Origin: a virus
Lineage: Duplodnaviria > Caudoviricetes
Direction: 5' to 3' (one strand)
Virus record (IMG/VR): IMGVR_UViG_3300011339_000552
Coordinates: 1 to 35,780 of that record
Length of the DNA: 35,780 nt
Positions 1 to 35,653 of the stretch are shown in pieces; the stretch's first letter is position 1, and each line of letters starts with the position of its first letter. The notes below the pieces were generated by a model. That model had not been told where the DNA came from. It worked only from the letters and a program-made list of their open reading frames with translations, and did not search any database. The translations under genes were made by a program, and so were the position numbers.

Positions 1-127
1 TTCTACTTAATGCAGTATTAATATAAACTGCTCCGGTTGCTCCGGTTGCTCCTAAGTGTAAATTATCGCCAAATACACCATCTGTATAAGATGCGTATGT
101 TCCACTTCTACCACCTATAAATACATC
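1..127. repeat. 127-bp exact direct repeat of the window end (circular assembly overlap), copy 1
   Basis: 1-127 is identical to 35654-35780. It lies inside an ORF that reads in frame across the join. Confidence 0.97.
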
Positions 128-3097
128 ACCAATTCTACTTAATACACCTGCACTTAAAGCACCCATTGTAAGACCAGCATTTGCTACTAAAGAAGCATCC
201 GTAAGCCTAAAAGAGCCATCGGTAAGTAACTGCAAAGTATTTCTTAAAGTTCCACCACGATAAAATCCTATAAACGGAGCATCTGTACTAACGTTTTTAA
301 CTTGTATTGAAGGAATAGCCGAACCAACATCAGCAGATACACCACCACTAAACGTAGCACTCGTTCCACTCAATGCACCAGTAAGTGTACCACCAGTTAA
401 AGGTAGGTAAGTAGCAGATGCGCTGCTTGTTGTTAAGTATGTGCTATTGTCATAGCTTATAGTAGTACCACTGATCTTGACAAATCCGGTGCCGTTAAGC
501 GCCGCTTGCTTGCCGTTAAATGTATTCCAATCTGTGCTAGTTAAAGCACCAGTTGTACTTGTACTTGCAGCCGCTAAACTTAAAGCTTGCGTGCTTAAGC
601 TTAGACCATTTGCCGTGCCTATTGTAACTGCTGCGTGTCTTGCTGCCGTGTTAGCCGCTACGTTTGCATTGGCATTTACTCTAGCCTCTGTATAATAAAG
701 ATTTGTACCCTCTGTTAAATTTGTTGTACTCTTGCCGCTAAACGCAGTATCAAATCTTGCTTGAGTATAATAAAGATTTGTACCCTCTGTTAAATTTGTT
801 GTACTCTTAGCACTAAATGCAGTGTCAAATCTGCCTTGTGTGTAATAAAGATTTGTACCCTCTGTCACTTGTGTTGTAGTATAATCACCACTTGCAGCAA
901 CTACTGCACCAGTGCGTCCAAAGACTGAACTTACACCGGTAACCAATCCACTCACATTGCCGTTTAATTTTTGAATAGCTTGCAAGATCGTATCAGTTGC
1001 AGCTACTACACCAGCACCGCTTGTGTAACCAGTAAGTGTTGATCCTATGCCTCTAGCATTTGTAAAGTATAAATTTGATCCCTCTGTGATATTGCTAGTT
1101 GTTAAACTAACTGCACCAACCTCACCATTGACACTTGTCACTGCATCGGTAGTATCTACCTTTTGCCATTTAACTCCGTCAAATATTGCCCAATCACCTA
1201 CATGCCACTCAGCTACTCCGTCAAGATTTGTAGTACCAGATACATCTGTGATGTAATAAAATCCTTTTGATCCTACACCGCTAGTTAAAGTTGGAGTATT
1301 TGTAGCTGCATTCCAAGTGCCTTTGTATATTGATCCACCTATTAAGCCATTAACTTGATTTTGTAATTTACCAAAAGCAGTCAAGATGCTATCTGTGTCT
1401 GCAATTGATCCGCCAGTAATATTTACACCACTCAAAATCTTACCAGTCACCGCGCTATTAACAAGACTAGGATTTGCATAAGTACCACTCAACTCACCGC
1501 CAGCAGCAATGCCGCTTATAGTTGTTAAGTAAGTATTATTGTCATAGCTTATAGTAGTGCCGCTTATTTTAACAAAGCCAGTGCCATTTAAAGCATCTTG
1601 CTTGTTGTTAAATGTATTCCAATCTGTGCTGCTTAAATATCCGTTTGCAGCACCGCCAGCTTGGCTTATGCTTACCACGCCACTGCTTACACTGATCGGA
1701 GCCGTGCCAGTAATAGCCGCTCTTGCTCTTGCATCTGTATAATAAAGATTTGTACCCTCTGCAACCGCCGTTGTATTTAAAGTCTGGAATGTTTTATCAC
1801 CTCTGTAATATTGCGCAGTTGTACCAGCAGCGATCAATGGCTGCTTGCCATTAAATGTACTCCAATCTGTGCTGCTTAAATAACCATCTGTGCTTGCGCT
1901 AGATTGTGTGATCGCAAAAGTCCTATTTGCACTAAGATCACCGCCACCAGTTAAAGGCGCAGTTGTGCTTATTGTCCTAGCACTTGTCACTGGAGTATAT
2001 CCAAGCAAAGTGCCTATCGTTGCAGATTTCCATAAGTTAGTAGCCGTGTCTCTATAAAGCACACCCTTGTCAATATATGGTGTAGCTGCCACATCGTGCA
2101 ACTCTTCTAATTCATAGCCATTTTGAATCTTAGCATAAATCTTGCCATGTTGAGAGTGTGCATATTCTACATAACCAACTGCAACCATGTGTTGCGGAGC
2201 CGTTGGCTTTACATTTGTAATTCTACCAGCAGTTGTTGGACTTAAATAAAGCACATCACCATCTGCCCAAGTCTCACCTTGTAGTGATCCAGTAGTATTT
2301 ATTTCTTTAACTTGTCCTAATATTGTGATAAATCCTTCTTGATTATTTTGTATTGTCTCAGTCACAATACCAATAGTGTCTGTGCTATTTGCGTCATTAT
2401 TTGCTTGCGCTAATTGCACCGCCACTCTTTGACCTTGTGCTGAACTAATACGCACCACTTGATAGTTGGCCTCTAATAAATCAGCGCCAGTCTTATTTAC
2501 AACTCTAGCAACTACCTCTTGCCCTATCTGCAAAGTTACGTTGCCGCCTTTTAAGCCTAGGTCTAGTGTGCCGTCTGTATTATTCCATCTAAGCACACCA
2601 ACACCAGCAGTGCCGGTAGGTGTTTGATCAAATGTAACTTGTCCAGCACTTAATTGATACTCACCTAAACTCACATTTCCAGTTGCACCAGTGTAAGGTA
2701 CTTTTGCATCAAGCATAGCTTGTGTTGGGATAAGATAGCCATTTGCAAGACTAAAGATACCACTTGCGCTTGAGTACTCAAGTCCAGTGATATTCTCACT
2801 GATCGCCGCTCTTGATCTAGCATTTGTGTAATAAAGATTTGTACCTTCTGTTAAATCAGTTGTTGTCTTATTACCAAAAGCAGTATTGAATCTTGCTTGA
2901 GTATAATAAAGATTTGTACCTTCACCCACTATGCTAGTTGTGTAGTCACCAGCTTGTCCTACTACGTTGCCCACTCTGCCAAACACACTAAATACATTGC
3001 TTGGCAATGGGTATGCGCCATTCTGCGTTACTACATTAACAACCGCCTCAGTGACATTTATTTCTATGATCTCGTCCGTTACATTTATTATTTCCAT
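1..3097 (-). CDS. Long tail fibre / receptor-binding protein, N-terminal part (continues across the circular join to 34782; 1322 aa in total)
   Basis: ATG at 3097 reads MEIINVTDEIIEINVTEAVVNVVTQNGAYPLPSNVFSVFGRVGNVVGQAGDYTTS. The product is Gly/Thr/Ser-rich with seven EG(T/S)NLY(Y/F)T repeats. 3097+872 nt = 3969 nt = 1323 codons, in frame with 34782..35564. Not in the ORF track because it runs off the window edge. Confidence 0.9.
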   Translation of the reverse strand, partial: MEIINVTDEIIEINVTEAVVNVVTQNGAYPLPSNVFSVFGRVGNVVGQAGDYTTSIVGEGTNLYYTQARFNTAFGNKTTTDLTEGTNLYYTNARSRAAISENITGLEYSSASGIFSLANGYLIPTQAMLDAKVPYTGATGNVSLGEYQLSAGQVTFDQTPTGTAGVGVLRWNNTDGTLDLGLKGGNVTLQIGQEVVARVVNKTGADLLEANYQVVRISSAQGQRVAVQLAQANNDANSTDTIGIVTETIQNNQEGFITILGQVKEINTTGSLQGETWADGDVLYLSPTTAGRITNVKPTAPQHMVAVGYVEYAHSQHGKIYAKIQNGYELEELHDVAATPYIDKGVLYRDTATNLWKSATIGTLLGYTPVTSARTISTTAPLTGGGDLSANRTFAITQSSASTDGYLSSTDWSTFNGKQPLIAAGTTAQYYRGDKTFQTLNTTAVAEGTNLYYTDARARAAITGTAPISVSSGVVSISQAGGAANGYLSSTDWNTFNNKQDALNGTGFVKISGTTISYDNNTYLTTISGIAAGGELSGTYANPSLVNSAVTGKILSGVNITGGSIADTDSILTAFGKLQNQVNGLIGGSIYKGTWNAATNTPTLTSGVGSKGFYYITDVSGTTNLDGVAEWHVGDWAIFDGVKWQKVDTTDAVTSVNGEVGAVSLTTSNITEGSNLYFTNARGIGSTLTGYTSGAGVVAATDTILQAIQKLNGNVSGLVTGVSSVFGRTGAVVAASGDYTTTQVTEGTNLYYTQGRFDTAFSAKSTTNLTEGTNLYYTQARFDTAFSGKSTTNLTEGTNLYYTEARVNANANVAANTAARHAAVTIGTANGLSLSTQALSLAAASTSTTGALTSTDWNTFNGKQAALNGTGFVKISGTTISYDNSTYLTTSSASATYLPLTGGTLTGALSGTSATFSGGVSADVGSAIPSIQVKNVSTDAPFIGFYRGGTLRNTLQLLTDGSFRLTDASLVANAGLTMGALSAGVLSRIGDVFIGGRSGTYASYTDGVFGDNLHLGATGATGAVYINTALSR
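690..2925 (-). repeat. Seven dispersed EG(T/S)NLY(Y/F)T coding repeats in the tail fibre
   Basis: taataaagatttgtacc(c/t)tc near 693, 768, 843, 1740, 2829 and 2904, with a variant near 1066. STDW(N/S)TFN(G/N)KQ also recurs three times and GTGFVKISGTTISYDN twice. Confidence 0.85.
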
Positions 3098-3947: not shown

Positions 3948-4538
3948 TTATAACTGCGTATCTTCATAAGGATTGTTAAAATTATATGGCAAATCTAAAT
4001 TGCTAACTTTGCGTCTGCTACCTCTTCTGCCTAAAAATATAGGCGATGTGTAAGCTTGTATCTGTGGTGCAATAGCATCAAAGCCGTCACCATATTGTAA
4101 GTATTGCTCAAACATGGTGCTATTCTCTCTTAAATAGTCAATTAATCTTTGCTTGTAAAATTCGCCATTGCTCATGTACTTGCGCTCTAATAACTCAAGC
4201 TGGCCCTTAGATGGGTTGTTGCTCTCTTCTGCACCTTTCTGCAACACGCCTTTGCTAAAGAATTGAAAGCTGGTGCTTACCACCATCTCGCCAATTGTAA
4301 ACCAAAGCAAAGTATCTGTGATGTAATTATCAAGCAAGTTTTTTTCGTCTTGGCTTAAGTTGCCTATGTCGATGCCTTCTTGCAATCTTTTATAAAGGCC
4401 AGATCCTAAAGCCGGCAATATAAATTTATCTTGAGCAAGCTTGATCACTGGCAAGATTTGCTTGCCATCAATCGCGTCACTTATAGCGGTGCGACTTTTG
4501 ACAAGTGATTCTGTTATAAAAAGTATGTTTAAACTCAT
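3948..4538 (-). CDS. Putative head-tail adaptor / connector
   Basis: 196 aa helical protein immediately downstream of the portal. Confidence 0.55.
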   Translation of the reverse strand: MSLNILFITESLVKSRTAISDAIDGKQILPVIKLAQDKFILPALGSGLYKRLQEGIDIGNLSQDEKNLLDNYITDTLLWFTIGEMVVSTSFQFFSKGVLQKGAEESNNPSKGQLELLERKYMSNGEFYKQRLIDYLRENSTMFEQYLQYGDGFDAIAPQIQAYTSPIFLGRRGSRRKVSNLDLPYNFNNPYEDTQL

Positions 4539-4541
4539 TTT

Positions 4542-6515
4542 TTATTTTTTTCTAGTTACTATTTTAACTTGCCATCTATGTCTGCAATATGGTCTGTGGT
4601 TGCCATTTGGCTCCGTAAACCATCCGCCTCTGCGATCCCAAACTGAATAACCTAAACGCTCACTAATATTCTCTATGTCTGCACGGCTCCAAAGTTTAGT
4701 TTTAGCCAGTTGCAACATTCTTGCACAAAATGGTCTATTCTTACTATCCTCTGGCCCAGAGTAAGTATATCTAAGCAACACCTCGGTCTTAGTTGCTTTG
4801 TCACCGCCCGGAATCTTTTTAAGTGGCTCTGTTAATTTTCTTACAACCGGTGTATAATTAGGGGCTAAAATACTTACCTCCAAACCGGTTTGGACTAAGT
4901 ACCCCTCAAGCTTTAGCGCCTCAAGCGCATTATCTATTTGCTCAACACTTTTATTTAAAACCTTGGCCATGACCTCTGGTGTCACACGCTTATCTTTACT
5001 GATCAAATCAAGGACATTTGCTTTAAGCACATTGATCTCTTCATCTGCAAAAGCCTCGTAATTCTTAGCGTCATGTGTCTCTATAACCTCAAAATCTTCT
5101 ACACTATCACCACATGCTGCAAACTCATTCAATAGCAAATCATCTTGCATAGATGCAAAAGCTTGCTCTGTTGCTGGATCATCGTCCACACCTAAAAACG
5201 TGTCAACATCTGCGTCTGTGAATCCAAATCCACTCTTTAACATTAACGCTGCTTGTGCTTTGTTAATCTTACCAGATCCGAATTGACGCACAATGCGCAT
5301 CACGTTTTGGTGTTGGCGACCGCTTAAGTTAGTCAAAGTTGCGTTTGCTTGTACTGGTTGTGTTGTCACACCACTAGCGTCAACTGCCGCTACTTGCAAG
5401 CCTAATTTCTCACGGATTTCATCTCTTGTCATGTTAGCTGACATCACTGCCTCGCTAAATTCAAAGCTTAACGGCTCAACTGGTACGATTTTAAACTCAC
5501 CCTCAATACCAGATAAGTTCATTAATTTAGTGAATGTTTGCTCATGCTCTTGCTGGCGCTCATTCACATAAGTATTTTGGAATATTTGGTATGCATCGCG
5601 AATCTCACTTCTACCACCTAATTGGCCCTCTGTCTTGATACCAAATAGCATCGGACTTGTAACTTGATGACAAGAGAAAATCTCTTGCATGATCAAATTA
5701 TTGACATTGGTAAAATCTTCTTTTGTTAAGCTTGTCTCACCTAAGTTCACAATGTCAACTGCATTCTCTTTAGATGGGTTAAATGCAATCACTACGCGAT
5801 CGCCGTCATGGTTTGCAAACTTACGTTTTAAGTCTGTCTCAACCTCTTCTTGCTCCTCTTCTTGAGGTAGGCCGTTATTAAAGTTGATCAATTTAGTAGC
5901 TACAAAGTTGTGCTTTGCATTGCCTAAAATGTGTCTGCTTACTTGAATGTCACTCTCAATATAGTTCAAGCCTTGGAAATAACTAGGCAAAGGATATACA
6001 TCGCTTTTAGGGTTGTATTGCTTTACAAAGAATATTTGTGGGCCACTAGGATCGTTTGGATTGAATGCTGGGTACTCTCTAGCTTTCTCTTTAAAGTCGC
6101 TAGCAGTCCAGTCATTCTTAACATAGAATGTTTTTAAGTCTTTGCTTACTCTTACTTTTTGAAACTCAATATGAAATACATCTTTGATCTTACCCAAAGC
6201 ATTATAAATGATTTGTAAGTAGTAGCCACCTTGCAACTCATCATCTAAGATTGAGCGCTTCATGATTTGATTCCAAGTCTCGCCTTGTGAATTGGCTTTT
6301 TGTTCTACACCTTCAAAGCCTTTGCCAAAAATGTAGTTTACTTTGCCTTTAACAATTGCTCCGTGTTTAGGTGACTCACCATACAACTCAATTAAGTAGT
6401 TTGGGTAATTGTTTTTAGCACCAAACTCAACATAATTTTTGCCTTTTTTCTCTTCAAATCTAGGCTGCTGCGCTTGATCAAACTGAATGTTTATTAATTG
6501 ATATTTATTGCTCAC
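4542..6515 (-). CDS. Portal protein with C-terminal extension (HTH-like segment and MuF-like Cys motif)
   Basis: Portal-like motifs FGAKNNYPNYLIELYGESPKHGAIVKGK, YPLPSY and HQVTSPMLFGIKTEGQLG. The likely start is GTG at 6515, overlapping the upstream stop (the track starts at 6581). C-terminus RPFCARML...RPYCRHRW. Confidence 0.85.
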   Translation of the reverse strand: MSNKYQLINIQFDQAQQPRFEEKKGKNYVEFGAKNNYPNYLIELYGESPKHGAIVKGKVNYIFGKGFEGVEQKANSQGETWNQIMKRSILDDELQGGYYLQIIYNALGKIKDVFHIEFQKVRVSKDLKTFYVKNDWTASDFKEKAREYPAFNPNDPSGPQIFFVKQYNPKSDVYPLPSYFQGLNYIESDIQVSRHILGNAKHNFVATKLINFNNGLPQEEEQEEVETDLKRKFANHDGDRVVIAFNPSKENAVDIVNLGETSLTKEDFTNVNNLIMQEIFSCHQVTSPMLFGIKTEGQLGGRSEIRDAYQIFQNTYVNERQQEHEQTFTKLMNLSGIEGEFKIVPVEPLSFEFSEAVMSANMTRDEIREKLGLQVAAVDASGVTTQPVQANATLTNLSGRQHQNVMRIVRQFGSGKINKAQAALMLKSGFGFTDADVDTFLGVDDDPATEQAFASMQDDLLLNEFAACGDSVEDFEVIETHDAKNYEAFADEEINVLKANVLDLISKDKRVTPEVMAKVLNKSVEQIDNALEALKLEGYLVQTGLEVSILAPNYTPVVRKLTEPLKKIPGGDKATKTEVLLRYTYSGPEDSKNRPFCARMLQLAKTKLWSRADIENISERLGYSVWDRRGGWFTEPNGNHRPYCRHRWQVKIVTRKK

Positions 6516-10185: not shown

Positions 10186-11772
10186 TTAGCTGATCCTTGC
10201 GGCTCTGTTTAATCTTACGATCCTTTCTTGATTGCCACTCACATCACTTTCTACAACGTATGCTCTAGCTGCCACATTACCTATTTGGTTAACTTGCGCT
10301 TGATTTAAAGTAGTAGTTTGTAAAGATGGCGAAAGTGGAGCAATTGTGCTTACACTAGGAATTGATGGCGCACCAAAGCTAGGCATTGAAATTCCGCTTC
10401 CGCCTTTTACTTGAGTCATTACGCTCTTTGCTCTACTAGCTGCTGCAAGTACTGCTGCAATTTGAGTGGCATAAAAAATAGGAAATGCAAAAGGTGCTGC
10501 TGGGCCAGTTGCTTTTGCACCTTTTTGTGCAATGTCTAAGCCTTGAATAAATCCAACGCCAGTGCCTATTGCTATCTCTGCAAGACCAGCAATCTTTGCG
10601 GCAGTAGTACCTTTCTCAAATAATGCAGATAAGCCGCCAGCAATATTACCGATAGCATTTGCAAGACCTAATTTTGCTTGCAACTCTGCATCCGCAAGTG
10701 CAATTTTTTTAGCAGTTGCATCCTCTTCTACTTTTAAAAGATCTTGTTGTAATTTAGTATCAAAATCATTATAAGCTTTAGCTTCTGCTGCTGCTTTCTC
10801 TAGCCTTTCAGTTTCTTTAGCATCTTGCTCATCTTCAATTTCAATAAGTCTTTGTTGTAATTCAGTGTCAAACTCTTCATAAGCTTTAGCATCTGCTGCT
10901 GCTTTCTCTAGTCTTGCTTTCTCTTCTGCGTCTTTTTTTTCTTGCGCTGCTTTCCTTTCTGCCGCTTGCTTTTCATTAAATGCTTTTTGATCAGCTAATC
11001 TTTTTTCTTGCTCTGCTCTTTCTGTATCAGTTAACTCTTTAGATCCAGCAATAAATCTTTTATTTGCAGCTTCATATCTAGTGCCGAACTCAGTGACAGA
11101 CTTTTTAGCATCATCCCACGCACCACTAAAGTCACCACTTATAAACTTTTTAACTGCTGATCCCACAAGGCCAAGACCTTGCAAGAATGAACTCATAGCA
11201 GAATAAGCCACTTTAAAGCCATCTGTGACATAAGGCAATGCCTTAGTAGCAAGATCAATAAAGGCATCTATTAAAGGCTCCATTGCTCCTAAAATGCCAT
11301 TTAAGATCCTACCAAATTGAGTCATGATCGGCTCAAGTTTTTTCATTGCACCTTCATTCTTTGCAAATGCAGCCGCTAGTCCAGCAACTAAACTAACTAG
11401 CAATCCAATACCAGTTGCTTTAAGTGCAGCACTAAATGATGTTGTTGCAACCTTTGCTCTGTTAAGCGCGGCTCCTACCATTCCTAGTGGCCCACCAGCA
11501 CTCTCTAAGGTATCAATCCAATCGCTAGATGCTTTTTTAGATCCTTTAATTTTATCCTCTAAATCATCAATTTGACTAAAAAGCTTATCAAATTCCTCGG
11601 AGCCAGCAGCCGTATTTTTTAACTGCTTTTTTAATTCTTTAAGCTGGGCAATACTACCTTCTGTGGCATTGCCAACACCTTGTATGTCATCTTTTAAACC
11701 TTTAACTTCTTTTTCTGCACCGCCGGTGTCAACTTTAATCTCGGCGGCAATTGTTGTCTTTTTAGTTGCCAT
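10186..11772 (-). CDS. Tape measure protein
   Basis: 528 aa, Ala/Lys/Glu-rich helical protein with coiled coils and hydrophobic segments (ATGIGLLVSLVAGL); C-terminal AYVVESDV motif. Confidence 0.8.
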   Translation of the reverse strand: MATKKTTIAAEIKVDTGGAEKEVKGLKDDIQGVGNATEGSIAQLKELKKQLKNTAAGSEEFDKLFSQIDDLEDKIKGSKKASSDWIDTLESAGGPLGMVGAALNRAKVATTSFSAALKATGIGLLVSLVAGLAAAFAKNEGAMKKLEPIMTQFGRILNGILGAMEPLIDAFIDLATKALPYVTDGFKVAYSAMSSFLQGLGLVGSAVKKFISGDFSGAWDDAKKSVTEFGTRYEAANKRFIAGSKELTDTERAEQEKRLADQKAFNEKQAAERKAAQEKKDAEEKARLEKAAADAKAYEEFDTELQQRLIEIEDEQDAKETERLEKAAAEAKAYNDFDTKLQQDLLKVEEDATAKKIALADAELQAKLGLANAIGNIAGGLSALFEKGTTAAKIAGLAEIAIGTGVGFIQGLDIAQKGAKATGPAAPFAFPIFYATQIAAVLAAASRAKSVMTQVKGGSGISMPSFGAPSIPSVSTIAPLSPSLQTTTLNQAQVNQIGNVAARAYVVESDVSGNQERIVRLNRAARIS

Positions 11773-11778
11773 GCTTTA

Positions 11779-12744
11779 TTATTTTAAACAAGTGTTTTGT
11801 GCAACTTGTCTTATTAGGTTAGTATAATTATATGATCCAAAGGTCTCATTGTACTCAGTATTCATCACATCTTGATAAGGCAATTTATCTGTATAAGCGC
11901 CTTTGTAGAATATATTATGATTTTTACCAATGTCATAAGTCACCCCAGAATTGTGAAAAATATCACACTTGCTCCATTTGTCAATTGGATCTGTACCCCA
12001 GCAAAAATCTAGTCTTGGCGTTATTTTTACATCAAGATCATGGTACCAGCAATTCCAAAGCATACCCCACATGCCGGCAGTAAACTGCTGGATGCCGTAA
12101 TAGCTTGGATTTTTTTGCACTCTTAATGGCTCGCTCTTTTGAAAATAATCATATAAAGCAACGCTATCGCTCTCAACCTTTTGCCAGAATTTATAATCAG
12201 TATTTTTAAAAATGTATTGAGATCCGCCACTATGCAATCTGTGCTTTATTGGCACGCTATAATCTAAGCCTACAATGTCGCACATATCTTCATAAAGGTC
12301 TTGACCTTTCTCTAGAATATAATCGCTCCAGATAAAGCTTTTTGAGTCGCTTACATAGCAGCTATCATCTTGCTCAAGATCACTAAAATCTACTGGCTTT
12401 GTGAAGATCATATCGCAGTCATGCAAAAAGACATTTTCCATTTGCAAATAAGGATAAGCTTGATAATGCTGCTTGACTGCATTCATGATCACACTAGGTA
12501 TGTAAGTAGGCATGACGCGAGTATCTTTGTATTCAAAGAAAGCTATTGTGTTAAATTTCTCTTTTAACCTTTCATACATAGCAGTAGTCTCTGGCCAGTT
12601 AGTCTTATCATTTTGATCTTTACTAACAGATAGCAAGACATGAATCTTGTCATCTGGTATGCCCACCGACTTAAAGTTGGTGAGCATAACTTCTAAATGC
12701 CATGCATAATAAACTATCTTAGGTTGTGTGCAAATATATATCAT
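11779..12744 (-). CDS. Glycosyltransferase (GT-A fold, DxD), resembling peptidyl-Ser/Hyp O-glycosyltransferases (GT96/GT95-like)
   Basis: VFLHDCDMIFTKPV carries the DxD. N-terminal YYAWHLEVMLTNF..G.P...IHVLLS, GGSQY, FTAGMWG and IFHNSG motifs. Confidence 0.7.
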   Translation of the reverse strand: MIYICTQPKIVYYAWHLEVMLTNFKSVGIPDDKIHVLLSVSKDQNDKTNWPETTAMYERLKEKFNTIAFFEYKDTRVMPTYIPSVIMNAVKQHYQAYPYLQMENVFLHDCDMIFTKPVDFSDLEQDDSCYVSDSKSFIWSDYILEKGQDLYEDMCDIVGLDYSVPIKHRLHSGGSQYIFKNTDYKFWQKVESDSVALYDYFQKSEPLRVQKNPSYYGIQQFTAGMWGMLWNCWYHDLDVKITPRLDFCWGTDPIDKWSKCDIFHNSGVTYDIGKNHNIFYKGAYTDKLPYQDVMNTEYNETFGSYNYTNLIRQVAQNTCLK

Positions 12745-12753
12745 ATTATTTTT

Positions 12754-15700
12754 TTATGGACATGATCCGTCAAACATTGAGATTGTTATTGTGCCACCAT
12801 CTGCTACAACTTGACCGGCAAATGTTCTACTTGTTGATGTTGCACTTATACAACTAAGATTTGATGATGTATCTATAACCTCAACAGAGTCGCCACTTAC
12901 ATTTGTGTAAGATACAACTATTGTTCTAGATGCACCAGTTTGTGTAGTTGTAGCGCTTGCACCAGCACCAGCAACTATTGGGAATGTTGCACCACTAACT
13001 TGCACTCCATTAATAGTTATATTTGTTATTGAGGTACCAGCCGTGTCATTAGCAATATCAACAAAAGCATAACCTATCGTTGTAGTAGTTGTTGTTGTGC
13101 TGGTAGTTGTTGTTGTAGGCGGAGGAGTTGTAGTAGTTGTTGTTGTACTAGTAGTTGTTGTTGTAGTTGTAACACAATTTACAACCGCTCCAGAACTTAC
13201 ACCTTTATTGCCAAGATCATCCATGATTGCTACATAGTATGTTGCATTTGCAAGCATAGTATATGTATATTCAGTAGCACCTCCTAAAAAGTCTCTAGTA
13301 GCTGAATTGTCTAATCTACTAAGTGCATCACTGCTTGATGTTGAACTTATAGAAATATATTCAAAACTTTCACTACCTCCGCTAAAACCATTAGCAGTAA
13401 TAGTTCCAGTTCCAGCACCGCCAGTACATCCCGGAGTCGCATTTAATGTAATTGCAGCATAAGTAGTAGTAGTAGTAGTAGTACTTGTAGTAGTAGTTGT
13501 TGCCTCCGTTGTAGTAGTTGTTGTTGTGCTAGTAGTTGTTGTAGGCGGAGGCGTTGTAGTAGTTGTTGTTGTACTAGTAGTAGTAGTTGTAGGCGGAGCC
13601 GTTGTAGTAGTTGTTGTTGTACTTGTTGTAGTTGTAGTAGTAGTTGGTGCTGGACATGTTTGACATGTTGACTCCGTCCATACTGCTACAAATTGACCAC
13701 CTTCAATGATAATAGTAAATCCTCTGCTAGTTCCGCTACATTCACTTAACCAGAAATTGCCAGTGATTGTGCCATTGGCAATTAAAGTACTAGTTAATTT
13801 AGTTGCAGTGCAAAGCGTATTGCCACCAGCTAAAATAGTAAATGTCTCTACTGGTCTAGATGGATTTGGACATACTACGTTACACACATCATAAGCACTT
13901 GTCATGCTATAAGACGCGACAAAAGTAGCTAGCGTTGTTGTTGTAGTTGTAGTGCTTGTTGTAGTTGTAGTTGTAGTAGTTGATGGTGTAAAGTCAGTAC
14001 CAACTGCATCAATCACTCTAAGTAGATCGACCTTTGTTGTGTCATTAGTCTCTGGACTATAATCATACACTTTTATAAGTCTATAAAGTCCGCCATCAAT
14101 AAAATAATACTTTGCAAAATCTATGTTAAATATGTCTAATTCCGTTAAATCAAAAAAGCCGGTTAGTAAACGGCTATCTTTATCTGTGATCTCTGCCATA
14201 TAAGGCGAGTAGTAAACATTAAATAAGTTGTAGCTTAAGTCACCACTTGTCAAGTTAAAAAACAATTGTTGTGGTGCGCCAAAGTTTATGTCAATGTTTG
14301 GTGTTGTTGGATTGTTTAAATGCCCACAAAATAAATAGGCAGTATTTGATCCTAAGTTAGTGGCTCCGTTTAAAATGCTCCAGTTTGCAACACCACTTAT
14401 TTTGTTAATCTGCATAATACGCATGATGTGATCCATAGGATCCTCTTTAGTATTATTGTCCGATTTTTTATAAATAGCTGGGAATACTTTGTCAGTTGTA
14501 CTTGTACCAAACAAAGGTGACGATGCAAATATTACATCAACGCTTTCAGTATCCTTTGCAAATTCAAGACCATTATCGTACACCCTATCACCATATCCCT
14601 CATTAAATTTCTTACGATAGTCCTCATTATAAAAATCATTATCTTGTTTATATTTAAAATTATAATATCTAGCATTGATCTCACTCATTGGCTTGATCTT
14701 AATCGCTTTGCTATGATCTAGCTTGTTACTCCAATCAACAATTGTACCAGTATAAAAGTCAACATAAGGCTTGATCACTAGATGATTTGTCTTGTATTTA
14801 TCTTCAATGATCATCAAATTATACATCTTCATGATCGATGTCACAAAGTCTTTTTGAAATATACCTTTTGGTATTGTATTATTGATCACCATTGTATCAC
14901 CTAATTCAATAGGTGCAGTTGTTGCAACATCGTTTATGACATTTATTGTACTTTCGCTCACATTAACCTCATCACCAATATCAAGTATGCAGCTTGTCCT
15001 TACTCTTAAAGTATCATTTGTTGCTAGTGTAACAGATAAAGATTTATTATAATAAAGCAAATCAGTGCCATTATAAGTTTGACTTGATCCAGATATTGCA
15101 ACTCCATTTTTTAAGACTGCTATTGTTAATGGCCTATTAGCTAAAATGTAATCTCCAAAAAGTTCTATTGTTAAATTACTAGTTAAAGTAGGAGTGCCAG
15201 TATAAGTGAATGTAGTATCGCCAGCACTTGCAGTAAATAAAGAGCCTACCTTAGTCTCATAACTTACAAAGTCTTGCGATCCACCAGTATTCATTGATTG
15301 CGCTATTGCCTTTGATAAAGCAAGCACATTGCTAGTTTGTTTAGTTAATTGCTTTGAATTGTTAGGTACTATTAACTTTCTAAAATCGCTAGTATTAAAC
15401 AAGTCGCATTCATAAGTGTAGCCACTGCCAGTGAAAATCTTATCTAGATACTCACGCACAAATAATGCCGGCTTGAATGTCTTATATTGAAAATTTACTT
15501 TGTCAGTACTTACATTGCCATAGTCAATCAAAGGATAGCAATAGCTAGTGCTGCCGCTTGTATTCCAGCTTGCCACAATATTAGCATAAGAGTATGTGTG
15601 ATCATAAGCGCTAAAGTCTAAGTCCTCAAGTCTTTTATTGCCAAGTGCATTTATAAATCCGCCTAATTCACCAAACAATGCGCACTCGTATTCAACCGCT

Positions 15701-16026
15701 CCGTCAACATGTACGATCTCAAGTAAGCGCAAAACACCTTTCATGATCTGCAATCCGTCAATCTCTATGCGTGCCGATGCGTTACGCGCTGCGTTAAAAT
15801 TAGCCAGAACATTTGGATCTAGAGGATTGTCAAAGTTAGCATTGTTAAAATCAAAGATATTGCCTAGCAATTTGTTATTGTTAGCAGTTCCGGGCAATAC
15901 TATTGTCTTTGTAAAACTAGTACTTTTGCTATCTAGGTTTTGTAGATCATCAATGGCATAAGTTATTTGATTGCTTAAGCCTTGCGTCAAATCAAGTTCA
16001 TATCCTTCAATAAATATTCTAGTCAT
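12754..16026 (-). CDS. Large tail (tip/hub-like) protein with C-terminal mucin-like Thr tracts and adhesin-like domains
   Basis: The N-terminal ~680 aa is tail-protein-like (SFTKTIVLPGTANNNKLLG, YCYPLIDYG, IMKMYNL, YRLIKVYDY). The C-terminal ~410 aa has three poly-Thr tracts separated by Cys-containing domains. Confidence 0.85.
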   Translation of the reverse strand: MTRIFIEGYELDLTQGLSNQITYAIDDLQNLDSKSTSFTKTIVLPGTANNNKLLGNIFDFNNANFDNPLDPNVLANFNAARNASARIEIDGLQIMKGVLRLLEIVHVDGAVEYECALFGELGGFINALGNKRLEDLDFSAYDHTYSYANIVASWNTSGSTSYCYPLIDYGNVSTDKVNFQYKTFKPALFVREYLDKIFTGSGYTYECDLFNTSDFRKLIVPNNSKQLTKQTSNVLALSKAIAQSMNTGGSQDFVSYETKVGSLFTASAGDTTFTYTGTPTLTSNLTIELFGDYILANRPLTIAVLKNGVAISGSSQTYNGTDLLYYNKSLSVTLATNDTLRVRTSCILDIGDEVNVSESTINVINDVATTAPIELGDTMVINNTIPKGIFQKDFVTSIMKMYNLMIIEDKYKTNHLVIKPYVDFYTGTIVDWSNKLDHSKAIKIKPMSEINARYYNFKYKQDNDFYNEDYRKKFNEGYGDRVYDNGLEFAKDTESVDVIFASSPLFGTSTTDKVFPAIYKKSDNNTKEDPMDHIMRIMQINKISGVANWSILNGATNLGSNTAYLFCGHLNNPTTPNIDINFGAPQQLFFNLTSGDLSYNLFNVYYSPYMAEITDKDSRLLTGFFDLTELDIFNIDFAKYYFIDGGLYRLIKVYDYSPETNDTTKVDLLRVIDAVGTDFTPSTTTTTTTTSTTTTTTTLATFVASYSMTSAYDVCNVVCPNPSRPVETFTILAGGNTLCTATKLTSTLIANGTITGNFWLSECSGTSRGFTIIIEGGQFVAVWTESTCQTCPAPTTTTTTTSTTTTTTTAPPTTTTTSTTTTTTTPPPTTTTSTTTTTTTEATTTTTSTTTTTTTYAAITLNATPGCTGGAGTGTITANGFSGGSESFEYISISSTSSSDALSRLDNSATRDFLGGATEYTYTMLANATYYVAIMDDLGNKGVSSGAVVNCVTTTTTTTSTTTTTTTPPPTTTTTSTTTTTTTIGYAFVDIANDTAGTSITNITINGVQVSGATFPIVAGAGASATTTQTGASRTIVVSYTNVSGDSVEVIDTSSNLSCISATSTSRTFAGQVVADGGTITISMFDGSCP
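13078..13983 (-). repeat. Three Thr-rich coding tracts (13078-13170, 13462-13644, 13933-13983) made of seven T(4-8)-S-T7 units
   Basis: Read from the DNA: T8ST7; T7ST7-APP-T5ST7-PPP-T4ST7-EA-T5ST7; T7ST7-PPP-T5ST7. That is 90 Thr with mixed ACA/ACT/ACG/ACC codons. Confidence 0.95.
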
Positions 16027-19735: not shown

Positions 19736-20153
19736 AATTGATCGTAATTGTATCTATGTTTGTATTTTCAGTTGTTGCGCGATCAGTCCTTCCTAGTGCT
19801 TTCTTTGCGTAGAATATTGCTTTGCCTTCATTTGCTACTATGTCAATAGCTAATGACTTAAACATGGTCACAATCCTATTAGCAACCTCATGATAAGGAT
19901 GTGTAGGATCTTGCCTTACTTTCCAAAGGCCCATCTTTGTGTAAAATTCAAAGTCATGCTTTCTTAACCAATGATCCAAGAAATAATCAATCGTTGGCAC
20001 AAAGCGATCTCTAATCTCAACAATCTTGCCCGATCCAGTTGCCACTTGCTTTTGGCCCTCCATGCAATTGTCACAATATGCAAACGCTAAGTCCATTAAT
20101 TTCTCTTCATCTACATCCTTAAACTTTCTAGTCACATGCTCTCTTATTTCCAT
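19725..20153 (-). CDS. terS: Terminase small subunit (putative)
   Basis: 142 aa, overlaps the terL start; AIFYAKKALGRTD resembles P22 gp3-like small terminases. Confidence 0.7.
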   Translation of the reverse strand: MEIREHVTRKFKDVDEEKLMDLAFAYCDNCMEGQKQVATGSGKIVEIRDRFVPTIDYFLDHWLRKHDFEFYTKMGLWKVRQDPTHPYHEVANRIVTMFKSLAIDIVANEGKAIFYAKKALGRTDRATTENTNIDTITINYES

Positions 20154-20743
20154 AATTTTATATTTTTAGTGCCATCACGATAGCCTCTTATATCAGCTTC
20201 ATGCTGCGCCCAATTCTTTTGTAATAGTTCGGTTTTGTTATAACCATATTCGTCACCGCTTGCGTGTGAGCCTACATGCTCTGCCAAGCAGTCCATCACA
20301 TAGTAGGTATTAAATCCAGCTATGTTGGCCCTCTCACAATAGTCCAGATCAATAGGCCCATAAGGAAACATTGACTCATTAAAGATGCCGATCTTGTCAA
20401 CTACCTTCATGCTTAAAAGCCAATTGCTTATGATATGCTGGCTCTTAATGCCACGCCTTTCTCTGTCCAAGCTACTTGCCACAATGCCGGCATCTGGGTA
20501 AGTCTGCAATGCCTCAACCTTTTTAGCAAGCCAATTGTCTGGCTCAATAATGTCATTTGCTAGATAAGCAATTGCATCATAGCCATCAACTCCAGCTATG
20601 TCGATAGCTTCATTCATAGCATTGGCTATGCCTTCAACATCAATAAAAACAATCTCAGCATGATAGCCAGTGTTGGTGCAATTCTCAACAATGATTGATC
20701 TTGGCCTCTTGCCATATACTAAGCCGGCAATAAGTACTTTCAT
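20144..20743 (-). CDS. Glycosyltransferase, family 2-like
   Basis: GIANAMNEAI, YLANDIIEPDNWL, IGIFNESM and YGPIDLDYCERANIAG match the GT2 pattern. Confidence 0.85.
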   Translation of the reverse strand: MKVLIAGLVYGKRPRSIIVENCTNTGYHAEIVFIDVEGIANAMNEAIDIAGVDGYDAIAYLANDIIEPDNWLAKKVEALQTYPDAGIVASSLDRERRGIKSQHIISNWLLSMKVVDKIGIFNESMFPYGPIDLDYCERANIAGFNTYYVMDCLAEHVGSHASGDEYGYNKTELLQKNWAQHEADIRGYRDGTKNIKLWK

Positions 20744-21229
20744 TTAAAATATGTTTTTGCCTATTTCTTTTGCTGGGTTGCCAGCATACTTTGTTGAATG
20801 TGTTGTATGTAGCCTTCTTGTAACTACTGCACCCATCCCGATCATGCATCCTTTAGCTATGATCTGCTTTTGATGGATCACTGCATTAAGTCCGATGTTG
20901 CAGCCATCACCTACTATCGTATGCCCACCGATCTTTGCACCGCAACTGATCGTCACGTTATTACCGATCACGCAGTCATGGCCCACATGGCTATGCTTAA
21001 GCATCCACACTCCAGCGCCTATGATTGTCTTATCAGTAGTGCCGGCATCAATTGTCACATGCCCAGTGATCACGCAGTCATCACCGATCACAACTTCACC
21101 GATCGGTGCATTCCAGAATAGCTTATGCTCGGCTGGCTCACCGATCACGCAATATGGCCCGATATAAACATTGTCACCTAGTGTGACATTTGGCCCTACG
21201 ATGGCCGTCTTATGGATGAATGTACTCAT
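20744..21229 (-). CDS. Left-handed beta-helix (hexapeptide) acyl/acetyltransferase, LpxA-like
   Basis: IHKTAIV, hexapeptide repeats, TIDAGT, HSHVGHDCVIG and terminal YAGNPAK. Confidence 0.9.
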   Translation of the reverse strand: MSTFIHKTAIVGPNVTLGDNVYIGPYCVIGEPAEHKLFWNAPIGEVVIGDDCVITGHVTIDAGTTDKTIIGAGVWMLKHSHVGHDCVIGNNVTISCGAKIGGHTIVGDGCNIGLNAVIHQKQIIAKGCMIGMGAVVTRRLHTTHSTKYAGNPAKEIGKNIF

Positions 21230-21440
21230 TAAATGTTTTATATACGTTAACTAAAAATGATCCCACGCATGCACCACATCTACTATTGTATGTGTAGTAA
21301 GGATCTTTTGTGCGCATGACTTCTGCCAATTCGTTTTGGATCTCATGTGTAAATCCAACCAGTTCACCAGTTGTCTTAAACAGATCATAGAAATGCTTAT
21401 GCTTTAACAAGGTCTGCAAATGCTGATCGTCTAGCTTCAT
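21210..21440 (-). CDS. Hypothetical protein with CxxC
   Basis: Likely start at ATG 21440 or 21452; RCGACV motif; fills the gap within the glycosylation cluster. Confidence 0.65.
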   Translation of the reverse strand: MKLDDQHLQTLLKHKHFYDLFKTTGELVGFTHEIQNELAEVMRTKDPYYTYNSRCGACVGSFLVNVYKTFNEYIHP

Positions 21441-22401
21441 TAATTCGCTCATGATTATATTTGTTTTTTGCCCACTCAAAAAGATCGTTACCCATTTTGA
21501 TCCTTTCATCTGGGTTGTTTACTAAGTATGATAAATGCTTAAACCAGTCTGCTTGATTCTTTACCCATAGCACTGGTGCATCTTTGTCTAGATTGTATGG
21601 CTCAACATCACTCACTACCACTGCCACTCTTTTAGCTGCTGCCTCAAGTAGCTTTAAATTACTTTTGCTTGCATGCCATGGTGACTCTTGCAAAGGCACA
21701 ACCATAATATCTGCATGCTTAAAATGCTCCATGTAATTGCTTGGCAATTCGCTTGCAAGTTTTCTATTAGGTAACTTGCCACCATTCGTAAACATAGAAT
21801 GTATCTTATCCCAGTATGATTTGCTCACTGGATCTGTGTCAGTATATCCGCCAAGCACCATCTCAATATTATTCAAAGCACTTAACCTCTTAAAAGGATT
21901 TGTAAGTAACTTGATGTCCTCAAGATGTGTTGATCCGCCGGCCCAGAAGATACGCGTCTTGTCGCTTTCGTATTTGCTATCATCATATTGATGCTCACCA
22001 TAAGGCAAGCAGTTAGGCAGTATCAATACTTTCTTATTGTACTTGCTTACCTTGTCAGCGATCCTTTCATTTGTGCATGTCACAAGATCAGCATTAAAAA
22101 TGTTGTTGATGATTCGCTTTTTGTGCGCCTCATATCCATAATACAAAGGATGGTTGTAGGGTAATTCCCAGTCATCATCAAGATCCATCACAACTTTAAA
22201 GTGTTGCTTTGTCTCATCCCAATCATTATCAAATTGACTGAATCTATTATATAACAAAATGTCAAACTGCCTCTCTTCAAGTATTTCTTTTGTAGGCACA
22301 TTGCACACATGGTTATAAGAATCCGGCAAGAATGCTAAAGGCAGCATGACTCTATGCCATCCACAACCGCTCATCTTTTGTGTGATGCCCAGCACTTGTA
22401 T
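21397..22401 (-). CDS. Glycosyltransferase, GT-B fold (GT4-like)
   Basis: SGCGWHRVMLP, VVMDLDD, IFWAGGSTH, KSNLKLLEAAA and VVVSDVEPY. The start is uncertain (ATA 22401, GTG 22395 or TTG 22491). Confidence 0.88.
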   Translation of the reverse strand: MQVLGITQKMSGCGWHRVMLPLAFLPDSYNHVCNVPTKEILEERQFDILLYNRFSQFDNDWDETKQHFKVVMDLDDDWELPYNHPLYYGYEAHKKRIINNIFNADLVTCTNERIADKVSKYNKKVLILPNCLPYGEHQYDDSKYESDKTRIFWAGGSTHLEDIKLLTNPFKRLSALNNIEMVLGGYTDTDPVSKSYWDKIHSMFTNGGKLPNRKLASELPSNYMEHFKHADIMVVPLQESPWHASKSNLKLLEAAAKRVAVVVSDVEPYNLDKDAPVLWVKNQADWFKHLSYLVNNPDERIKMGNDLFEWAKNKYNHERINEARRSAFADLVKA

Positions 22402-22405
22402 GATC

Positions 22406-22528
22406 TTAGCGTCCTTGTCCACGATATTTCTTGGGTTTTGGTGAGTGCTTGTTATAGCTTTTTTTTTCTGATCCAATCTTACGTTTTCCAAATGTCACCT
22501 TGCGTGCATCACTTGTTGATTTTGCCAT
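22406..22528 (-). CDS. Small basic protein ending KKYRGQGR (40 aa, not in ORF track)
   Basis: MAKSTSDARKVTFGKRKIGSEKKSYNKHSPKPKKYRGQGR. Its ATG overlaps the upstream stop (TAATG). Confidence 0.8.
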   Translation of the reverse strand: MAKSTSDARKVTFGKRKIGSEKKSYNKHSPKPKKYRGQGR

Positions 22529-34781: not shown

Positions 34782-35653
34782 TTATTTATTTATTAATGCT
34801 TTTAATTCTTCTATTTCTGCTTTAAGTTCTTGTATTGCTTTTACCAAATGTACATTGATTCCAGATGTTAAACCACCAGTCAAACCTTTTCTTGTTTCTT
34901 CCCCTTCATTAGACATATTTTCTACTACATATTCTGGGAATATTTCTTCTACTTCTTGTGCAATAAAACCAGCTTTTGTATGTTCTTTTGTTTTTATCCA
35001 ATCAAACTCAACTGGATTAAGAGCAAGTATTTTTTCTAAAGAACCATTTATTGGTACTATGTTTTCTTTTTCTCTTACATCCGAAATTGCTGCAAATTGA
35101 ACATTTGATACACCATTACCTACAATGCCACCCATAGCAGTAGTTCCACCGCCTCCATAAAATTGTATAAATCTTGCATCACTATTTGTTGTAGCACTTC
35201 CTTTAAAACAAGCTAAAGCTGGTGCACCATCTGCAGTAGTACTTGAATTTGAAATCTCAAGTGTAGGCTGACCTCCATCATTTGAAACACCATCAATACG
35301 ATTTCTTGAACTTCCAAAAATAGTACCTTGACATTGTGCTAAAAATTTACCTCCACTATCTACTCTTACTCTTTCAAATCCACCAGTATAAATTCTAAAA
35401 AGACCATCCGACCATGCGTTTAAATCTCCAATATTACCACAACCAAAACCCATATTTACGTCACCTCTTAAAAGATAAAGTTTTAATTTATTACCGGCTT
35501 GAGTAGCACTTGCTGCGTAGCTATTATCAAGCGTTACAAAAGTTGGAGTAGTAACTTGAGACAAAGAAGTATATTGACCAACTTGTAGCCTTGCGCCGTT
35601 GTCGCTTGTATTGCCTATTAATACATTCCCGCCGGCTGGGTTTATAATTAAGT
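34782..35653 (-). CDS. Tail fibre C-terminal part with intramolecular chaperone (peptidase S74-like) domain
   Basis: Reads NLIINPAGGNVLIGNTSDNGARLQVGQYTSLSQVTTP across the join. The C-terminus has SDVREKENI..., GFIAQEVEEIFPEYV and LVKAIQELKAEIEELK, the motifs of S74 autocleaving chaperones. Confidence 0.9.

Follow-up and report, generated by a model that had tools for sequence, protein, structure and literature searches.

Excerpts of several papers report virion glycosylation for the mycobacteriophages Che8, Corndog and Myrna (PMC12619734, PMC11256854, PMC12363180, PMC13445384), the glycans being accepted at the C-terminal ends of the capsid and tail-tube proteins (PMC12619734). An excerpt of a further paper deals with the plant enzyme HPAT (CAZy family GT95), the serine alpha-galactosyltransferase SGT1 (GT96) and Pfam family PF23452 (PMC8012813). 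Here we analyse a window of 35,780 bases, the complete tailed-phage record IMGVR_UViG_3300011339_000552 with direct terminal repeats at its ends, in which the gene for a 321-aa protein lies directly behind that of a 1090-aa likely tail-tip protein with three threonine (Thr) tracts. On genomic and structural grounds we propose that the 321-aa protein probably primes the O-glycosylation of proteins, with a portable poly-Thr tag as its acceptor; on the same grounds glycosylation of Thr by this enzyme is likely. The proposal is supported by a GT-A fold, by conserved predicted metal-binding residues and by joint gain and loss of the enzyme with Thr runs on unrelated virion proteins.

The primary study of mycobacteriophage virion glycosylation is reportedly that of Freeman et al. 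2023, covering Che8 gp108-110, Corndog and Myrna. Like the Che8 system, the present one has phage-encoded glycosyltransferases (GTs), and the Thr tags seen in Firmicutes phages occupy the same C-terminal places on the capsid and tail-tube proteins (see below). The differences are several. The enzymes of Che8 (gp108-110) are recognised by the Pfam models for GT2 and GT25 and do not match the family described here, against whose profile they score E 0.08 or worse. The Che8 GT genes are far from the structural genes, whereas the gene for the 321-aa enzyme lies inside the virion operon. The acceptor here would be a multi-site poly-Thr tag; the capsid and tail-tube proteins of Che8 have Gly-Ser ends, no Thr runs and a maximum of 3 Thr in any 10 residues. 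No mycobacteriophage occurs among the tblastn matches listed for the enzyme (78 records) or in their organism tally.

HPAT and SGT1 are likewise priming protein O-glycosyltransferases acting on repetitive structural proteins, but they are Golgi membrane proteins that modify hydroxyproline or Ser, whereas the phage enzyme is soluble and goes with Thr runs. Streptococcal serine-rich repeat adhesins have dedicated GtfA/B and Gly enzymes, and animal mucins have GalNAc-T; in both, as here, a hydroxyl-rich repeat protein is encoded with or served by its own GTs. Their priming enzymes belong to GT4 (GT-B fold) and GT27, however, and the proteins they modify are secreted to the cell surface and form no part of a virion. 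Neither the enzyme family nor the enzyme-tract pair nor poly-Thr virion tags were found described in the literature listings searched (a mention in the Freeman et al. study or in older phage genome papers being possible), in line with the first-pass annotation, which knew of no phage mucin-domain protein paired with a dedicated GT.

The likely tail protein and its threonine tracts

The features of the locus, all on the minus strand, are the following.

12754..16026, minus: likely tail-tip/baseplate protein, 1090 aa, predicted acceptor (from open reading frame (ORF), gene position and tracts)
14920..15345, minus: TNF/C1q/BclA-CTD-like beta-sandwich, residues 228-369 (from structure model and fold search)
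13933..13989, minus: Thr tract 1, residues 680-698, 16 Thr
13462..13653, minus: Thr tract 2, residues 792-855, 49 Thr; T5-7/S/T7 units interrupted by AP or PP
13078..13170, minus: Thr tract 3, residues 953-983, 26 Thr
11779..12744, minus: GT-A-fold protein of phrog_4417 ('prophage pi2 protein 34'), 321 aa, predicted to prime protein O-glycosylation
12412..12420, minus: DxD motif D109-C-D111, predicted to bind metal and nucleotide sugar together with H264
10186..11772, minus: probable tape measure protein, 528 aa (weak tape-measure family match, E 4e-4)

Minus-strand genes include terminase, the 1090-aa ORF, the 321-aa ORF, the probable tape measure, protease, capsid and portal. The ATG of the 321-aa ORF follows the stop of the tail gene after 9 nt, at the coordinates and with the gap given by the first-pass annotation, and its own stop is followed after 6 nt by the 528-aa ORF. 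The annotated place of the enzyme between tail gene and tape measure is thus upheld, the tape measure itself being a probable assignment from the weak match listed above. The three annotated Thr/Ser/Pro tracts are likewise present, 19, 64 and 31 residues long, with a total of 91 Thr instead of 90. Being long and rich in Pro, Thr and Ser, they have the sequence character of mucin-like (PTS) domains. The protein consists of a conserved 672-aa N-terminal body and a C-terminal arm, in which the tracts set apart three small Cys-containing domains (93 residues and 6 Cys in the first, 97 residues and 2 Cys in the second, 107 residues and 2 Cys in the third). No other ORF of the record reaches even 6 Thr per 10 residues, and none of 663 ORFs in tractless relatives reaches 7.

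Across 18 related loci, tract codons are mixed (ACA 905, ACT 712, ACG 123, ACC 17), and Ile, one transition away from a Thr codon, is met a single time in about 2150 residues. An origin of the tracts as a DNA microsatellite, by slippage, is ruled out by these two observations. Since the number of tracts (2-4) and their Thr content (82-143) vary among the relatives while codons stay mixed and residues are almost exclusively Thr, Ala, Ser and Pro, the pattern points to selection acting at the protein level and not to slippage of DNA.

Residues 1-672 are conserved in at least 3559 proteins. Among the best 120 of these, 74 are long with tracts, 20 are long without tracts and 26 are short. The long tractless homologues carry Cys-rich repeats, cadherin/Ig or PF03382 arms (such alternative arms are seen in P0062, P0078, P0121, L112, L115, L121-L124 and L144). 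Because one conserved N-terminal body carries tract, tractless or short endings, the C-terminal arm is a swappable module.

The structure model of the tail protein has a mean predicted local distance difference test score (pLDDT) of 44 and is confident only at about residues 231-370 (pLDDT 63-92). Fold search with residues 228-369 retrieved the BclA C-terminal domain (Z 13.5, root mean square deviation (rmsd) 3.3, 127 aligned), followed by cyanophage A4 (Z 13.3) and the carbohydrate-binding domain of the A-1(L) fibre (Z 12.5); this part is similar to domains with which tail fibres of cyanophages bind carbohydrate. No PHROG profile matched the 1090-aa protein. The modelled domain fits a tail-tip protein without proving that identity; together with gene position (the slot ahead of the tape measure gene is conserved) it makes a tail-tip component likely. 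The earlier name 'tail protein' can therefore be kept on account of position and domain, the rest of the model being of low confidence.

Co-occurrence of the enzyme with threonine runs

We wondered if tracts and enzyme occur together among homologues, a check proposed by the first-pass annotation. For this, 57 loci were retrieved with an alignment of the tail protein. The enzyme gene lies directly behind the tail gene in all 20 tract-bearing loci and in none of the 34 tractless ones, the remaining three being cut off; in tractless relatives the tape measure gene stands directly behind the tail gene instead. Nor was the enzyme found anywhere in 19 tractless records, 11 of them at least 90% complete, whereas both tract-bearing controls (2/2) were positive. 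A phylogenetic tree was constructed with FastTree from 52 rows of the N-terminal domain, excluding rows below 600 aa or lacking a complete end. Tracts and enzyme each need four changes on this tree; L112 and L115/L116, which have neither, nest among tract-bearing kin. All three independent tree pairs agree on co-change of tract and enzyme, a number too small to reach significance by itself (p 0.25).

The association was also approached from the enzyme side, counting ORFs with 7 Thr in 10 residues that are adjacent to the enzyme or within 3.5 kb of it. Among 102 IMG/VR enzyme loci, about one quarter of which belong to the tail family of this phage, such an ORF is directly upstream in 73 and within 3.5 kb in a further 18 (91/102 in total); none is found in 7, and 4 are truncated. 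Counted by cluster, 19/23 phage clusters are positive; so are 12/15 cultured phages (14/15 under a looser cut) and all 24 Bacillota genome loci (control ORFs 0/663). The adjacent partners with a usable pre-tract part (n=99) fall into 25 unrelated sequence families. In 13 of 15 cultured regions the enzyme gene is inside the virion operon, while in Semele and LP65 it stands beside a small Thr-rich gene.

A reverse scan for a Thr-codon pattern in one of 64 IMG/VR parts gave 125 loci, 67 of which have an in-frame run of eight or more Thr. Searches covered 55 records from 66 in-frame loci and 36 records from 50 of 58 other-frame loci. The enzyme was found in 11 of the 55 in-frame viral records versus none of the 36 others (Fisher p 0.003), some of the 11 being contigs already in the enzyme-anchored set. 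The association thus passes the test from either side, and it does so in several lineages that are independent of one another.

Cultured phages of Firmicutes carry the Thr runs in another form. In iLp84, phiFL1A, phiCTP1, VPE25, bIL285, 1706, CHPC836, 4995_1, PMBT8 and others, capsid, tail-tube or decoration proteins end in short poly-Thr tails of 8-25 residues. Two groups among them include natural knockouts. In Lactococcus phage CHPC836 the enzyme gene follows the capsid gene, and both the capsid and the tail-tube protein bear Thr tails; in CHPC148, 4268, BK5-T and CHPC1175 (84-91% capsid identity to CHPC836) the enzyme is absent genome-wide, and so are the Thr tails, save for a short Thr-rich capsid end in two of them. 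Lacticaseibacillus phages iLp84 and R9.1 encode the enzyme, and both of these proteins are Thr-tailed in them; in CL1, iLp1308, JNU_P10 and R24.2, at about 98% capsid identity to them, the enzyme is again absent genome-wide and the tails are missing, the tail-tube gene of JNU_P10 lying outside the stretch compared. As the tail-tube gene is about 1.5 kb, or four genes, away from the enzyme, two separate sites change together and a single inserted cassette cannot explain the pattern. For bIL285, phiFL1A and 4995_1, no close cultured relative was found besides near-identical records, the next matches being at most 60% identical.

Within a phage, capsid and tail-tube tags share their last two or three residues (1706, iLp84, R9.1 and CHPC836; loci L241:1468-3528 and 4238-4975, L234, L381 and L245), and these matching ends would fit the copying of a tag from one gene to another. 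Thr runs are present also on the prohead proteases of VPE25 and TPWB06 (L237:1382-2560; L243:2-1039), so tags are not confined to proteins of the outer surface.

Enzyme family, fold and gene context

Sequence searches of Pfam, NCBIfam and PDB returned no match for the 321-aa protein. It matches phrog_4417, a family of unknown function, over its full length (E 5.5e-54, residues 1-315), and its tblastn matches are annotated 'prophage pi2 protein 34'. The family comprises 967 protein clusters at 50% identity, an estimated 1100 or so viral stretches among 2.9 million IMG/VR contigs, and 77 records of the phage collection, dairy and enterococcal phages included.

The AlphaFold model of the enzyme, built on a 140-row alignment, has a pLDDT of 97.8. 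Foldseek gave UGGT, glycogenin and LgtC as best matches (E about 1e-6, template modelling (TM) score 0.4-0.5), and the VIA structure search gave LgtC (Z 14.8, rmsd 3.2, 229 aligned), glycogenin (14.5), Gat1 (14.2) and UGGT (14.2). With this model we are confident in assigning a GT-A fold. The earlier designation as a GT, which the sequence libraries did not support, is hence carried by the fold. The closest solved folds are those of GT8 and GT24 enzymes (LgtC, glycogenin, Gat1, UGGT, GlyE; Z 12.9-14.8), which share the DxD and a C-terminal His with the phage enzyme but are only 9-13% identical to it at TM 0.4-0.5, as members of a common fold clan and a separate family. Because only the fold clan is shared, their specificity cannot be transferred to the phage enzyme.

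The DxD noticed in the first pass is D109-C-D111; D109, D111 and H264 are invariant among 30 homologues. In the 140-row alignment (about 30-85% identity) D111 remains invariant and D109 and H264 are at least 90% conserved; G174, Q176 and M225 are also invariant or nearly so, and a GGxQ loop is conserved. The residue before the conserved Met-Trp (M225) is Gly in 37/37 members of the clade of this phage and in 46/76 other IMG/VR members, and Asp or Glu in 79/80 members from genomes. We liken it to the xED-like acidic position of GT-A enzymes. In phiFL1C and phiFL2A the enzyme match is split in two pieces, possibly by a frameshift or a sequencing error.

Relation to the plant enzymes was examined separately. 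Among language-model (Atlas) neighbours of the phage enzyme (score 0.96, 208/256 features shared), PF23452 is found on just 10% of cluster members (21/30 named hits). In the direct profile comparison the best of 62 family members reached 11.2 bits against a curated cut-off of 23.9 (E 0.23, 1/62). Direct HPAT searches of the enzyme and of genomes gave no match, the controls in the genome searches giving none either, and no HPAT or SGT1 structure is among the Foldseek and VIA matches. By analogy, the system would act like Che8-type glycosylation and plant GT95/GT96 priming; its enzyme falls outside the Che8 type, and membership in GT95/GT96 is no more than weakly hinted at.

An extra GT domain at E 0.01 or better (GT2, 6, 7C, 25, 29, 32) is present in 14 of 50 longer homologues, as expected for a priming enzyme with its elongators, and in multi-GT fusions the enzyme family is usually the N-terminal domain. 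In P0162 the enzyme is fused to a radical SAM/SPASM domain; enzyme ORFs of similar length (about 660 aa) are present in L064, L098 and L100. Long Bacteroidota chromosomal homologues are fused to GT2/GT7C. At six of 37 Bacteroidota loci (L167, L173, L177, L178, L207, L210) short Thr-run ORFs lie 0.4-5.7 kb upstream, and L179 is listed alongside them. These ORFs look like precursors of RiPPs (peptides made by ribosomes and then modified post-translationally); glycosylated lanthipeptides or similar products are possible. The remaining flagged short ORFs look like noise.

As for the host, the tail N-terminal domain has its only cultured match in an Elizabethkingia phage (E 2e-6) and the enzyme its best one in Chryseobacterium phage MA9V-3 (39%), which weakly suggests a Bacteroidota host. 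Just upstream of the terminase, at 20144-22491 on the minus strand, are genes for a GT4-like protein (364 aa), a hexapeptide acetyltransferase (161 aa) and a GT2-like protein (199 aa). They are kept in relatives of the tail family with or without tracts and appear to form a second, core sugar-modifying module of the family, whose products could extend the glycan. A linked role for them in the enzyme-tract module was rejected, since tractless kin retain these genes; linkage to tracts is for the same reason specific to the 321-aa enzyme. A 1032-aa open ORF runs off the record start (2-3097, minus). At the other end, the ORF at 34782-35564 (minus) encodes an S74 chaperone domain; the two are probably a single tail fibre gene spanning the origin of the circular record.

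Alternative explanations and proposed function

Several observations weigh against a priming enzyme for poly-Thr tags. The enzyme is absent from 44 of the 55 poly-Thr viral records, including 7 of 9 near-complete ones, and since most such records lack it, tracts do not require the enzyme and other uses or other modifiers exist. CHPC148 and 4268 retain their short Thr-rich capsid end without it. Conversely, no tract lies near the enzyme in SAC12B (none within 5 kb) and in 7 untruncated IMG/VR loci, and none at the strict cut beside 35 of 37 long Bacteroidota chromosomal homologues. The tail family offers just three independent pairs (p 0.25), or about five with the two cultured groups added. 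Gly in place of Asp/Glu before the Met-Trp may alter or weaken catalysis in the clade of this phage, and the hints of HPAT/SGT1 membership are weak. The phage loci with enzyme and, at the strict cut, no Thr-run ORF nearby are L246 (SAC12B), L028, L029, L052, L074, L091, L092 and L100; their acceptors may be elsewhere in the genome or rich in Ser.

A modification of the Thr runs by something other than a simple O-linked sugar (sugar-1-phosphate or polyol-phosphate) is unlikely, and so is an enzyme that merely elongates from an initial sugar placed by the host. GT-A folds do include phosphotransferases (GNPTAB, Z 10.1, and CpsY, Z 10.0, in VIA), but true GTs score higher (Z 14-15). Elongating enzymes are among the top fold matches (LgtC, Gat1, UGGT, GlyE), and the acidic residue typical of most members is missing in the clade of this phage. 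Priming by the host is made less likely by pairing in both Bacteroidota-type and many Firmicutes phages, whose hosts would hardly share one cytoplasmic priming enzyme, and by the usual N-terminal place of the family in multi-GT fusions. Less probable still, the tracts might be plain unmodified linkers and the enzyme, hitchhiking in the same cassette, might act on DNA, host lipopolysaccharide or cell wall. GTs of phages that act on DNA and host surfaces are known (excerpt of PMC12619734), and the 44 poly-Thr records without enzyme would agree with hitchhiking; the 25 unrelated partner families, the gain and loss of tags on non-adjacent genes together with the enzyme, and its place in virion operons (13/15 cultured regions) or beside the small Thr-rich gene of Semele and LP65 argue against it. 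Most improbable is a chaperone or assembly factor that binds Thr runs against aggregation with little or no catalysis, which predicts an identical co-occurrence pattern and would suit the Gly of this clade, but does not account for conservation of DxD, His and GGxQ loop over 140 rows of about 30-85% identity or for fusion partners that are other GTs.

As a priming O-glycosyltransferase, the enzyme would work in the cytoplasm of the infected cell, where it would use a nucleotide sugar of the host together with a divalent metal and add an O-linked sugar to the Thr runs of the neighbouring 1090-aa protein. GT8 and GT24 enzymes are retaining, and a retaining mechanism is probable here as in these closest folds. 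The Thr run would be recognised as a portable tag, independently of the protein that carries it. Dense glycosylation yields extended, protease-resistant linkers, as in mucins. In this phage, three glycosylated extended linkers (of 19, 64 and 31 residues) would keep the small outer domains at a distance from the tail tip and shield them against proteolysis, and in Firmicutes phages the short capsid and tail-tube tags would give rise to a glycan coat. We tentatively rank surface masking or protection first among possible purposes and a stiff spacer second. The enzyme-substrate gene pair of the first-pass annotation thus gains genomic and structural support but belongs to a system wider than one tail protein; the bottle-brush stalk stiffening an adhesin would be one candidate use and not the defining function, because members of this enzyme family also accompany capsid, tail-tube and decoration proteins with short poly-Thr tails at their C-termini.

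Taken more broadly, we give about even chances to the view that these enzymes form a new family, widespread and remotely GT95/GT96-like, of soluble O-glycosyltransferases that prime on poly-Thr as a tag, by which phages of Bacteroidota and Firmicutes, placing the tag on any virion protein, build mucin-like brushes and coats and which soil Bacteroidota reuse with elongating GTs on Thr-run RiPP precursors. If true, O-glycosylation in bacteria would gain a useful tool in the form of one soluble enzyme and a short peptide tag. The isogenic-like cultured pairs (CHPC836 versus 4268 or BK5-T; iLp84 versus CL1 or iLp1308) make the role of phage glycans testable in food-grade hosts. A predicted function is now available for a long-unnamed gene family, and the pair points to a route of virion glycosylation that is independent of, and broader than, the one reported in the excerpts for a few mycobacteriophages.

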